DNA of 64,000 nucleotides from an uncultured Hormoscilla sp. Its GTDB lineage: Bacteria > Cyanobacteriota > Cyanobacteriia > Cyanobacteriales > Desertifilaceae. Positions within the stretch are counted from its first letter, which is position 1, and each line of letters starts with the position of its first letter. Location of the stretch: NCBI GenBank assembly GCA_963921275.4, contig OZ001293.3:4224001-4288000 (forward strand), in the 5' to 3' direction. Positions 16,581 to 19,278 of the stretch are shown here, piece by piece. The notes below the pieces were generated by a model. The model saw only the letters and a list, made by a program, of their open reading frames with translations. It was not told where the DNA came from and ran no database searches. Position numbers and translations under genes: made by a program.

Positions 16581-18190
16581 ATGGCAGACAAGAGATTGCG
16601 TTACTTCGATGGTCAATTTTTACAAGACCAAGATTTCATAGACGAACAGGAATATCACCTCGATCGGGAACGCCGGCCGTTCAAATGCTTGACAGTAGCA
16701 GGAGTTTGTGAGGGTTTGACCGTTACTGCTGGGTCCGGGCAAGTGACTGTAGCGCGAGGGATGGCAATAGATGCTCAAGGTCGGCAAATAGTGCTGGAAT
16801 CACAGGAGGTTGTCGATCTGACGGACCATGTTCCCCAGACTGGACAAACCAAACCAGTGAATCTGTTCGTCGCCTACCACGAAGAAGCCTCAGATCCGGC
16901 AACGGCAGGCAGTCAGGGAAACCGACGCTGGTATGAAAAACCCCAAGTAACGGCGTTGGATGTTAGCGAGTCTCAGCCTAACAATGCAGTGAAGTTGGCC
17001 AAACTGACTGTAGAAGCTGATGGCGATGTGATAGTTGATGCTAGCGTCTGTGAATATTCAGGTCTGCATTTACCCAATGGGAATGGGAATGGGGCGATAT
17101 TGCGCTATCAGAGCGATGGGAATGGCAGTCGCCCCATCCTGACGGGCGATCTAACAGTGAGTGGCAATCTGGGTATCGGCACCACCAGTCCGGAGAAGAA
17201 ACTGCACGTGGAAAGTGGTGAATTGAAAGTCAAAGCTAGCCACAACAATGCGACCGCAGATATCGCGGCTTTCTTAGCTAACAATGGGACGCAAGGAATT
17301 GGCATAGGCTACAACAGGCTCGAAGCGATCGGCAGTAACGAGAACCAGGATATCGAAATGCGTCCGAAAGGAACGGGTACAGTCAAGGTATTGGGGGATT
17401 TGCAAGTTGAAAACAACAAGACTATCAAGTGGAATCGAAATATGAGGCAAATGATTGATTTGTGGGGGACAGAATATGGTATTGGAATCCAGAATCACAC
17501 GCAATATTTTCGCACGGGGATGAATTTTGCCTGGTATAAAAGGGGCAACCATAATGATGGGGAACTGAATGCGGGGGGCGGTACGGTACAATGGTCATCA
17601 AAGATGGCAATGTCGGCATCGGTAAGAACGACCCGAGCACGAAATTAGATGTCGAGGGAGTGGTAACAGCAACGGCGTATGTGGGCAATGGCATAGTCGT
17701 AGCTGGCATGATTGTCATGTGGTCCGGGAGTAGCAGCAATATACCAGCAGGGTGGGCGATGTGTAACGGCGAAAATGGAACACCGGATTTGCGGGATTTA
17801 TTTATCGTCGGCGCGGGAAAAAAATATCAACCGGCGGAAAAAGGGGGGTTGGAGAGAGTGAAATTATCGGAGTTGGAGCTGCCAAAACATCACCATAGCG
17901 GCTCGACGGGCTCCGGCGGAGACCACAATCACGTATGGAATGATGACTTTAGAGACTGGTTGTATATCGGCCAAGGGCACGGCGGCTATCATGATCCTGG
18001 AACGCACGGCGCGGTGTACTGGAAAAATAAAGGGACATGGATACCATTCAATGCGTCAGGCAATATAGGGCAGGATACAAAATACGCATCAGCACATGAG
18101 CATGGATTCTCGACATCAGATGTAGGAGCGGATAAGCACCACGAGAACAGGCCGCCGTACTACGCGATGATATACATAATGAAAATATAG
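16581..18190 (+). pseudogene. eCIS tail fibre (baseplate anchor, GNVGIG repeats, collar/tip domain); 1-nt frameshift at ~17590
   Basis: RLRYFDGQFL..DF.DEQ.YH; GNLGIGT; collar GMIVMWSG..P.GW.MCNG.NGTPDLR; tip HENRPPYYA. Confidence 0.85.
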
Positions 18191-18207
18191 CAAGCAAGGG
18201 AGGAAGA

Positions 18208-19278
18208 TCATCGGGATTTGTTGAACCAAAAACGGGAAAAAACCGAGACAACCGGAAAGTTTTGGAAAACACAAAGCCAACATTCAATGGCAGAAAACAC
18301 CGCGCTAACCTCTTCAACCCCACTACGTACCCACCGCCACCAATGACGCAGATATTCACCAATGCGTTCCACAGACGCACCTTGCTCGTAAAGCCAGTAA
18401 ACCTTCGCCAAACATCTCTCCACCGTCTGAAGGGCTACGGCCAAACCAGAGGGAGAAAACCGATAGCCCAAAAAATCAAAGCCCCGGGAAGTGCGACCGA
18501 TAAAAGACTTATCCGGGTGCGTCTCCAGAAGCAGCACGTCGAGTACCTTATTAACTGCCTTAATGGCCTGGCGCAGCTTCCACCGGGTCGGTGCTAAGAC
18601 CACCCAGTCATCCATGTACCGGACGTGGACGCAGCCCAGTGCCGCCATCCGGTCATCCAAAGGCTTGAGGTAGAGGGCCCCCATCAGGGGTGATAAGGGA
18701 CAACCGAGGGAGATCCCCTGTTGGATAGCGGTAATAGTGCCGCTATCGGCAACCAACCGTTGCTGGTACTGGCGCAGCAGATCCAACAACCGTTCTTCAT
18801 GGACAAATTCGCATAACTGCCGATAGAGAATCTCGTGATTAATGGATGCATAATAGCCCTTGACATCAGTGCGAAAGACAAAATCATATACCCCGACCCG
18901 GGCCGCCACCGCCCGCACGGCCCCCTTGAGTCCGCCAGTCCCGGCCAGATGAAAGCAACGGGAGGATAAATGGGGTTTCAGATGAGCGGTCAAAACCAGA
19001 GACATGGCCTTTAAGACCTTGGCATCCCGTGATGACCACGCTCCGGGCCCCCTCCGCTACTCGACTGTCCGTTCCCGGTCGGGAATTAACCGCAATTCCC
19101 GAAAGCGATAACATCCGGTCAGTAACAGTTGCTGTATGCGCGGTTTTTCTTCATGCCACCACCGGCGGAGGTGCCACACGTCCCCATTAAAGTGATAATG
19201 GGCCCGGGTCCGACACAGCCATTCATAGGCTTGGTCGATAATTTCATCGTCGGCAATTTGGGAGATTAAGTCAGTCAT
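18208..19278 (-). pseudogene. Stand-alone reverse transcriptase, DGR-like motif 4; in-frame TAG at 19057-19059
   Basis: ORFs 19057-19278 and 18208-19005 share a frame; TDVKGYYASI, GISLGCPLSP, RYMDDW, GFDFLGY; no intron domains V/VI nearby. Confidence 0.85.

Follow-up and report, generated by a model that had tools for sequence, protein, structure and literature searches.

A strand-specific depletion of adenine at silent sites accompanies a branch of UG4 reverse transcriptases beside contractile injection system fibre and effector genes

Diversity-generating retroelements (DGRs) such as that of Bordetella phage BPP-1 (bRT/Avd/TR/VR, target Mtd) carry a reverse transcriptase (RT) beside the distal receptor-binding end of a fibre-like gene. 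RTs of the UG4 group (Simon and Zimmerly 2008; Mestre et al. 2022, UG/Abi class 2) are small (~350 aa), possess no extra domain and stand in no defence context. In the sections of PMC9226505 and PMC2602772 that treat them, UG4 RTs are described as small, without enrichment in defence islands, partly associated with fimbrial genes, doubtful in the ends of their open reading frames (ORFs), and as the sole non-intron RTs with a hint of retromobility. Afp/PVC-type extracellular contractile injection systems (eCISs) comprise a set of structural genes with eCIS_core (DUF4157) effectors. We analysed a stretch of 64,000 nt (the window) from the genome of an uncultured Hormoscilla sp. (GCA_963921275.4, contig OZ001293.3, positions 4,224,001–4,288,000; genome G000). 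The window unites elements of known kinds, namely an eCIS locus, a UG4 RT and a fibre tip of the putative collar-domain type, and the RT lies tail to tail with the tip. A one-strand, distance-dependent compositional footprint goes with this RT family, and RT-free relatives of the neighbouring genes lack it. The tip is one instance of this footprint, in which A on the RT-sense strand, and not T, is depleted over the first 1–1.5 kb past the RT 3′ end. The depletion is independent of the type of convergent gene, be it a fibre tip, an eCIS_core effector, a pore-forming toxin or a gene of unknown type.

The gene content of the locus is that of Afp/PVC-type eCISs. Genes for sheath, tube, gp25/baseplate J, spike-tip, AAA ATPase and eCIS_core effector proteins were all identified with Pfam, and by these predicted domains the window carries a complete eCIS gene set in one locus. 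Unlike in those systems, RT, Uma2, XisH/XisI and HicB genes are inserted, and several structural genes are split. The RT matched the PADLOC RT_UG4 profile at positions 66–306/307 (E 2.8e-90) and 3–63 (E 2.4e-15). The genome search with RT_UG4 gave 358.7 bits, and the best matches in 400 other genomes of the phylum gave at most 142. Many relatives of the RT, with 55–73% identity, occur in filamentous cyanobacteria and beyond. The RT shares its small size, its lack of an extra domain and its lack of a defence context with the UG4 group, but its partners, genes for eCIS fibres and effectors, lie tail to tail with it, and the present copy is a pseudogene. The fimbrial neighbours reported for part of the group were not found in the window, where eCIS genes adjoin; the related loci contain eCIS_core, BB_PF or unknown proteins.

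The RT family has a sharply defined 3′ edge. The UG4 profile ends at residue 248/282 of the RT, and the family alignment is conserved through the motif WVRSGV and unrelated beyond it. In loci L144–L223, the conserved unit is ~1.1 kb long and ends exactly at the WVRSGV codon, after which the ORF continues to a chance stop in the flank, and the C-terminal tails vary widely in length. Such chance-stop tails may account for earlier annotations of UG4 RTs as “fimbrial fusions”. RT copies that are 85–97% identical aligned, in nearly all pairs, from ~50–100 nt before the ORF to between −13 and +180 nt of WVRSGV. The end of homology at this motif indicates that the RT lacks its own stop codon and is surrounded by flanks that are young or exchanged. 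The missing stop and the unrelated flanks are echoed by the doubtful ORF ends and the hint of retromobility in the accounts of the UG4 group cited above. Near-identical RT copies were also seen in different contexts, which suggests mobility or frequent exchange of flanks.

The locus resembles the BPP-1 DGR in three respects: an RT stands beside the distal receptor-binding end of a fibre-like gene, the trace concerns adenine of the RT-sense strand, and it is confined to a limited 3′ part of the target. The defining features differ. The signature motif of DGR RTs is [I/V/L]GxxxSQ, as given in the relevant part of PMC7826257, whereas the present UG4-clade RT has GCPLSP (of the form GxxxSP) in its place and reads ISLGCPLSPLMG at the motif; G118, C119, S122 and P123 are invariant in 30 family members. 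The nearest solved structures to the RT are RTs of the group II intron type (E 3e-18), as against E 3.8e-4 for the chain of 8ub7 (328 aa), which we take to be a DGR RT. A repeat search of 15500–22000 revealed no TR/VR pair and no repeat of at least 20 nt joining the tip and the RT region, the sole long repeat being a duplicate of the RT 5′ end; lacking a separate template repeat, the system is not a DGR. No Avd-type protein was recognized with Pfam among the 13 ORFs of at least 60 aa in 10447–20638. Moreover, the RT is convergent with its neighbour, whereas DGR RTs are co-directional with their targets, and the footprint extends over ~1–1.5 kb, compared with ~0.1 kb in BPP-1. In the window, T (antisense A) is lost at silent sites, whereas in the BPP-1 DGR positions 1 and 2 of AAY codons are affected. 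According to the relevant part of PMC7826257, bRT inserts A (22%), C (18%) or G (12%) opposite template A. This spectrum includes A-to-G and would erode T at twofold sites too, yet the tip keeps its twofold T; the apparent spectrum here is free of A-to-G, and no hypermutation was evident among RT copies. The DGR reading is thus refuted on the defining features tested. The initial annotation had suggested that the composition of the tip could be a trace of DGR-type mutagenesis by the adjacent RT. Its link between loss of A, the RT and the strand was borne out in the RT family, whereas the DGR mechanism was not, given the UG4 class, the GCPLSP motif, the missing TR/VR and the pseudogene state of the RT. 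A-to-N copying of an antisense RNA, as proposed there, would be a tentative reading; the spectrum of a copying process, if one is at work, would resemble a change of A to pyrimidine.

A single open frame of 545 aa encodes the fibre in G004, a genome of the same genus. The initial annotation had treated the compared regions as parts of the same gene, which agrees with G004; in the window they are two ORFs in different frames. The N-terminus of the first ORF scored 58.9 bits against NCBIfam CIS13_fam (NF053767), for which the cut-off is 370, and matched in residues 5–108 only. The tip scored 21.4 bits against Pfam Collar (E 2.5e-4), below the cut-off of 24. It has 954 homologues at E ≤1e-5, of which several are named microcystin-dependent protein, with 23 invariant columns in common. 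By these matches, the tip is the predicted collar-domain, “microcystin-dependent protein” type receptor-binding end.

The silent-site composition of the tip was determined by codon class. Fourfold-degenerate codons ending in T numbered 21/81 in 16581–17075, 11/71 in 17076–17590 and 3/85 in 17591–18190, and the last value differed from the first at p = 3.6e-5 (Fisher) and from the pooled fourfold T share of the genome (0.230) at p = 6.6e-7 (binomial). The fourfold A,C,G,T counts in the tip ORF were 26,23,33,3, the T deficit (−0.20) being offset by G (+0.12) and A (+0.07) with C unchanged, as expected if transversions alone had occurred. The twofold C,T counts were 25,31; a twofold T share of 31/56 is normal for this genome (0.593), and T/(T+C) differed between fourfold (3/26) and twofold (31/56) sites at p = 2e-4. 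Ile codons in 18041–18190, the last five, were ATA,ATC,ATT = 5,0,0, and ATA accounted for 7/12 Ile codons over the whole tip ORF, compared with 0.21 in the genome. At codon positions 1 and 2, the T shares (0.176 and 0.221) were normal when compared with the means of 80 homologues (0.162 and 0.205). In the tip, silent sites alone are affected. The RT tail (18208–18320) had a T content of 0.41 on the RT strand across all three codon positions, and the first 100 nt past the conserved RT end had A 0.16 and T 0.42. The fourfold counts of the initial annotation, including the intermediate middle part, were reproduced exactly, and its statements on the terminal ATA codons, on the persistence of T at twofold sites and on the A-poor RT tail likewise held.

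The best change point in fourfold T lay at 17480/17486, with 83/365 to the left and 4/100 to the right and a 2-lnL support interval of 17438–17728. A step model (lnL −212.5) and a saturating gradient (lnL −213.9) were not separable in the window. In raw strand composition, the region is within the top ~1% of genome windows for AT skew; the signal resides in the silent sites and not in the raw strand composition. The fibre of G004 had 9/98 fourfold T in its last 700 nt and 26/129 before. At the 39 fourfold sites shared by the tips of G000 and G004, T was rare in both, occurring at 3 and 2 sites, respectively, with none in common.

We examined the same property in the RT family. Eighty loci were fetched from metagenomes (501 confirmed), and 29 whose RT was at least 90% identical to a retained one were dropped, which left 51 non-redundant loci. 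Among the 53 loci with at least 900 nt downstream, 52 had a downstream ORF, and the first such ORF was convergent with the RT in 41. Thirty convergent ORFs were scanned, of which 5 were eCIS_core proteins, 1 was pore-forming, 5 had other domains and 19 were without a Pfam match. The RT-sense fourfold A/(A+T) value of the 51 unselected loci was 0.315 at 0–1000 nt downstream of the RT and 0.522 beyond 2 kb; the value near the RT was lower in 13/13 loci having both (p 2.4e-4). The downstream value (0.349) was also lower than that of upstream ORFs (0.495), in 17/18 loci (p 1.9e-4). In the 24 closest loci, RT-sense A was 0.25–0.29 upstream, 0.11–0.14 in the RT, 0.16–0.19 to +1500 nt and 0.27–0.32 beyond, while T of the same strand was unchanged (0.326 vs 0.284). 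The 31 loci with a GC content of at least 0.5 showed a weaker downstream effect, the value being lower than upstream in 6/7.

The T share of the first convergent ORFs, taken per 500 nt, was 0.15, 0.14, 0.20, 0.25, 0.33 and 0.42. Second ORFs within 1.5 kb of the RT were also low in T (0.13–0.19). T climbed within a single ORF in L147 and L170, and stayed low to 2 kb in L148. The spacer past the RT had A 0.19 and T 0.27, with A < T in 19/23 loci, whereas the 200 nt upstream of the RT had A 0.26 and T 0.27; the AT skew of the first 100 nt past the conserved RT end was −0.22 (76 loci). The genome of the window contains a second locus of this kind (L142, G000:C1:970500-980000), in which a relic of the last ~70 RT codons (L142 ~8148–8354) is faced by a convergent ORF that ranks 5/3723 in fourfold A/T skew. 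As a further cluster of the eCIS type, L142 encodes eCIS_core proteins, an AAA ATPase and Pvc16_N. The whole L142 cluster has A > T at silent sites, most strongly in the ORF facing the relic.

RT-free relatives of both the tip and the effectors were used as controls. In 80 loci with tip homologues, the ratio of the T share of the tip to that of the other ORFs of the locus had a median of 1.09. RT matches were absent from 79 of these loci, and the one match was the G004 locus (L050). The ratio was below 0.5 in 7/80, which were the G004 locus and six loci with GC contents of 0.60–0.77 and low twofold T as well. A family trait of collar-domain tips was rejected, as the 79 RT-free homologues were without the bias. 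The occurrence of the same bias in RT-free fibre homologues had been named in the initial annotation as a refutation, and its absence leaves the RT link standing. The two RT-free effectors of the window had T shares of 0.17–0.18 without a drop at the 3′ end. Forty eCIS_core effectors were picked from matches in 251 genomes of the order, with their surroundings unknown beforehand. Two of them had this RT convergent within 350 nt of their stop. For the other 38, T/(A+T) was 0.479 in the last 1 kb and 0.481 before, with the lower value near the end in 18/38. The lowest of the 38 (L241, 0.175) had a weak relic of the last 45 RT codons in the expected place and on the expected strand (two collinear matches, E 0.007). 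The three effectors with a convergent RT or relic, L233, L256 and L241 (0.226, 0.253 and 0.175), were thus the three lowest of 40, and the remaining 37 RT-free effectors had a mean of 0.487 and a minimum of 0.32. A trait of eCIS_core effectors as such was likewise rejected, as the RT-free effectors were without the bias. An RT or relic beside 3/40 blindly picked effectors indicates that the association is not rare in the order.

Among the explanations considered, we rank a process linked to the RT transcript first, a pool of exchanged cassettes second and selection on an RNA third, followed by chance and then a DGR. The first, that an RT-transcript-linked process removed A from the RT strand as A to C or A to T, has in our estimate a probability of roughly 0.4. 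A process tied to the read-through transcript of the RT would produce these changes, which would appear on the fibre coding strand as T to G or T to A. Such changes are silent only at fourfold sites and in Ile codons, which would explain the surviving twofold T. In the simplest version, the RT would take as its template the 3′ region of the RT transcript, an RNA antisense to the neighbour, and place purines opposite template A; the cDNA would occasionally convert the chromosome, and A lost at neutral sites would never be regained. As the RT is dead in this genome, the bias here would be a relic, and with the RT, the fibre and two baseplate genes broken, the acting process would be past.

Several observations weigh against this explanation. 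RT copies that are 85–97% identical share no flank, which makes slow accumulation beside one RT hard to fit. No concentration of differences on adenine was seen among RT copies: per-site differences among copies 85–99% identical, totalled over pairs that are not independent, were 0.097 for A, 0.076 for T, 0.075 for C and 0.064 for G, so that A sites differed only ~1.3 times as often as T sites and gave no signal of hypermutation; the downstream flanks were not alignable. A is replaced by G inside the RT of close relatives and by C or T downstream, and the plus strand of both window genes has gained G. An A deficit is absent from the RT gene itself in GC-rich loci (below upstream in 7/16), and A near the RT is highest (0.20–0.35) in the three close loci whose first downstream ORF is co-directional with the RT. 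Twofold T in the family is also somewhat lower near the RT (0.55–0.60 vs 0.73–0.75), which indicates that a simple increase in GC3 contributes to the effect. In G004:C16, a 3′-truncated RT copy stands beside an 846-aa ORF without depletion, which is either uninformative or a counter-example. In addition, the group of the 24 closest loci was chosen after the values near the RT had been seen, and the relic in L241 was found solely by searching the five lowest controls, of which the other four gave nothing credible.

A more specific form of the RT-transcript process is that this UG4 branch would be a template-free, adenine-selective retro-conversion system that mutagenizes or renews the host-contact end of a fibre or toxin and evolved independently of DGRs. 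The RT would misread A of the read-through messenger end as a pyrimidine, the cDNA would be written back, and the silent loss of T would be the long-term scar. We consider this form unlikely.

In the second explanation, the T-poor composition is a property of swapped 3′-end cassettes or of the target sites of the RT and was not made by the RT, which would be a small mobile or recombinogenic unit beside exchangeable 3′ ends of convergent fibre and effector genes. We regard this as possible, with a lower probability than the RT-transcript process. Fibre tips and effector C-termini are classic mosaic parts. In C-terminal cassette swapping of tail fibres and polymorphic toxins, a conserved N-terminal part carries a replaced C-terminal part, homology to a sister genome is lost sharply and neighbouring effectors are diverse, all of which is seen here. 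The homology of the 85–97% identical RT copies stops at WVRSGV and ~50–100 nt upstream of the ORF with unrelated flanks beyond, and the window and G004 align on either side of a swapped block (17776–18590) that contains the last 138 codons of the tip together with the spacer and the 3′ third of the RT; G004 has an internal RT deletion there. A generally higher GC3 near the RT also agrees with cassettes, as does the equal fit of the step model in the window. However, the T-poor domain begins ~300 nt before the swap boundary, and G004 is T-poor in the alignable part too (4 T/46). The bias affects one strand, A falling and T not, which a donor of different GC content would not yield. The C-termini of RT-free effectors, swapped ends included, are richer in both A and T and not depleted of T alone, and only 5/38 RT-free effectors are below 0.35, which indicates that suitable pre-existing targets are rare. 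The gradual rise of T within L147 and L170 is also difficult to reconcile with cassettes, which moreover offer no reason for a T-poor pool.

The third explanation is selection on RNA, in which the RT messenger, lacking its own stop and 3′ end, extends antisense into the neighbour and this extension is kept A-poor, or the end of the neighbour mRNA is kept U-poor, for example as a template or primer site of the RT, for stability or for the avoidance of signals. Its predictions for strand, start and decay coincide with those of the RT-transcript process. The T-rich, A-poor tail after the RT end is family-wide in the AT skew and the spacer alike, and other UG/Abi RTs operate with non-coding RNA, as stated in part of PMC9226505. 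This explanation nevertheless appears rather unlikely, and we place it below cassettes. The aligned RT 3′ flanks of the window, G004 and the second locus contained no sequence conserved beyond the coding part (the G004 coordinates are probably off), and an Rfam search of 15000–23000 with E values up to 1 gave no match, so that neither a conserved sequence nor a structure was found after the RT. Reaching 1–1.5 kb into a foreign gene would be a heavy demand, and the bias is still present with a dead RT both here and in G004.

The fourth explanation invokes ordinary codon usage of the individual gene, or the tail expected by chance where fourfold A/T use varies widely between the genes of a genome. 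The background comprised 3766 ATG-ORFs of at least 150 aa from the whole genome, of which 3723 were ranked for A/T skew. The tip ORF has the third lowest fourfold T share, the two ORFs below it (156 aa) being without a Pfam match, and ranks 1/3723 in A-over-T skew (0.79). Nevertheless, genes without a nearby RT approach it, with T shares of 0.044–0.08 and skews up to 0.76; they include rplE (ribosomal protein L5), nusG, bioB, minC, scpB and genes for RNase H, TPR proteins and a bilin reductase, of which rplE, a TPR gene, bioB and others reach 0.72–0.76. Since ordinary genes fill the tail, the value of the window, taken by itself, marks the end of a broad distribution and does not fall beyond it. 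The genome-wide SD of the skew is 0.24, fourfold and twofold T are weakly coupled (r = 0.30), and the binomial p multiplied by 3723 ORFs is 0.06. In the comparison with the genome background that the initial annotation had proposed, the tip ranks at the extreme, with housekeeping genes close to it. Chance or codon usage is improbable all the same and is already disfavoured by the RT-family data: the effect was replicated independently of the window in 13/13 and 17/18 loci, the RT-flanked effectors and the second locus of the genome stand at the extremes given above, the bias is missing in 79 tip homologues, and ATA at 7/12 Ile codons is not a pattern of preferred codons. A replication-strand cause was rejected because the fourfold skews along the chromosome were without a replichore pattern, and a general 3′-end effect because the 3′ ends of 334 long ORFs of the genome (0.520 vs 0.491) were not T-poor. 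Low-T ordinary genes (e.g. G000:C1:2867867-2870699, 2554277-2554822 and 4123974-4125083) have normal twofold T. Lastly, a true DGR mutagenizing the tip from a template repeat would suit the classic setting of an RT adjoining the receptor-binding end of a tail fibre and the hyper-divergence of the tip C-terminus from G004, but with T as the base lost on the target coding strand, where a DGR varies A, and with the differences in RT class, motif, repeats, Avd and structure described above, it is by far the least probable explanation.

Features of the window (positions are those of the 64,000-nt stretch)
Feature	Position	Strand	Basis or remark
eCIS structural genes	2141..16551	+	Pfam; 78–85% nt identity and syntenic with G004:C35
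Tail-fibre ORF 1, 355 aa	16581..17648	+	Last 19 codons out of frame after 1-nt deletion
T-poor silent-site domain	17486..18187	+	4 T/100 fourfold sites; ~0.85 kb nearest the RT; change-point analysis
1-nt deletion splitting the fibre	17590..17591	+	Alignment: G004 CAGATG, window CAATG
Fibre-tip ORF, 199 aa, T-poor	17591..18190	+	Putative tail-collar / “microcystin-dependent protein” type; starts at original Met
Block not aligning with G004	17776..18590	.	blastn and translations; both flanks ~78%
Spacer and non-conserved RT tail	18191..18320	-	A-poor, T-rich on RT strand; family conservation ends here
UG4-class RT pseudogene, 356 codons	18208..19278	-	PADLOC RT_UG4, Pfam RVT_1, translation
In-frame TAG (19057-19059) and six extra codons	19039..19059	-	Relatives have one Trp (TVEWWSS)
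Uma2-family endonuclease gene	19481..20095	+	Pfam E 6e-39; between the RT and the remaining eCIS locus
Distal eCIS genes	20213..32649	+	Pfam; XisH/XisI and HicB genes interspersed
Spike-tip genes	20213-20638, 23208-23642	+	Pfam
Truncated second copy of RT 5′ end	21210..21294	-	96% identical to 19155-19237
AAA ATPase	25398-27374	+	Pfam
eCIS_core effectors	28446-30764, 31648-32649	+	Pfam

The coordinates of the features are collected in the table. The structural genes preceding the fibre encode two sheath, tube, LysM/tube, hub, OB-fold spike, gp25, baseplate J-like and Tail_P2_I proteins. The RT retains its catalytic YMDD, and its ORF is not intact owing to the in-frame TAG and the six extra codons; the RT orthologue of G004 is likewise broken. 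Contigs from four public runs of one study, perhaps the source of the genome, were identical over 16500–19400, which indicates that the fibre deletion and the TAG of the RT are both present in the reads. The baseplate gene of G004 (1321 aa) corresponds to two overlapping ORFs of 729 and 536 aa (10447-12636/12536-14146), and a 970-aa gene of G004 to ORFs of 244 and 288 aa around a non-aligning stretch (14250-15863). The eCIS locus thus looks decaying, with the fibre and two baseplate genes broken relative to G004. Both spike-tip copies match one region of G004, and the truncated RT 5′ copy and the second spike-tip gene flank the Uma2, XisH/XisI and HicB stretch, which looks like a segmental duplication with insertions. 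When the RT was used as tblastn query against the whole genome, over 60 distant RT matches (19–30% identity) appeared, many of them in identical copies; these are presumably RTs of group II introns, and their genes rank with the windows of the chromosome that are richest in A. Elsewhere in the window, 36100-36495 (-) and 3-1634 (+) show the opposite extreme, with fourfold A of 2/64 and 22/250, respectively; the former ORF may not be a real gene, and the latter encodes an FG-GAP/RTX repeat protein. Contig C3 of G000 (31,420 bases) has a GC content of 0.176, compared with 0.474 for the chromosome, and may be a foreign or organelle-like replicon or a contaminant.

A literature search at the level of titles and listings retrieved no paper linking eCISs with RTs, and the neighbour tables in supplements might mention such genes. 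No compositional footprint is described for UG4 RTs in the portions of PMC9226505 and PMC2602772 outside their supplements. Neither the tail-to-tail pairing of an RT branch with genes for eCIS fibres and effectors nor the strand-specific footprint at silent sites appeared in the literature found. UG4 is a prokaryotic RT group without a known function, and a branch of it lies here, tail to tail, where eCIS genes for fibres and effectors have their variable end. Even if the composition results from cassette exchange, such loci can be annotated better now that the RT unit is delimited precisely at its 3′ end and linked to eCIS cargo, and both results may explain older reports of “fimbrial fusions” of UG4 RTs. 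If the footprint is RT-driven, it would represent a second, mechanistically different bacterial way to aim reverse transcription at host-contact proteins and would provide a testable function for the orphan UG4 group.

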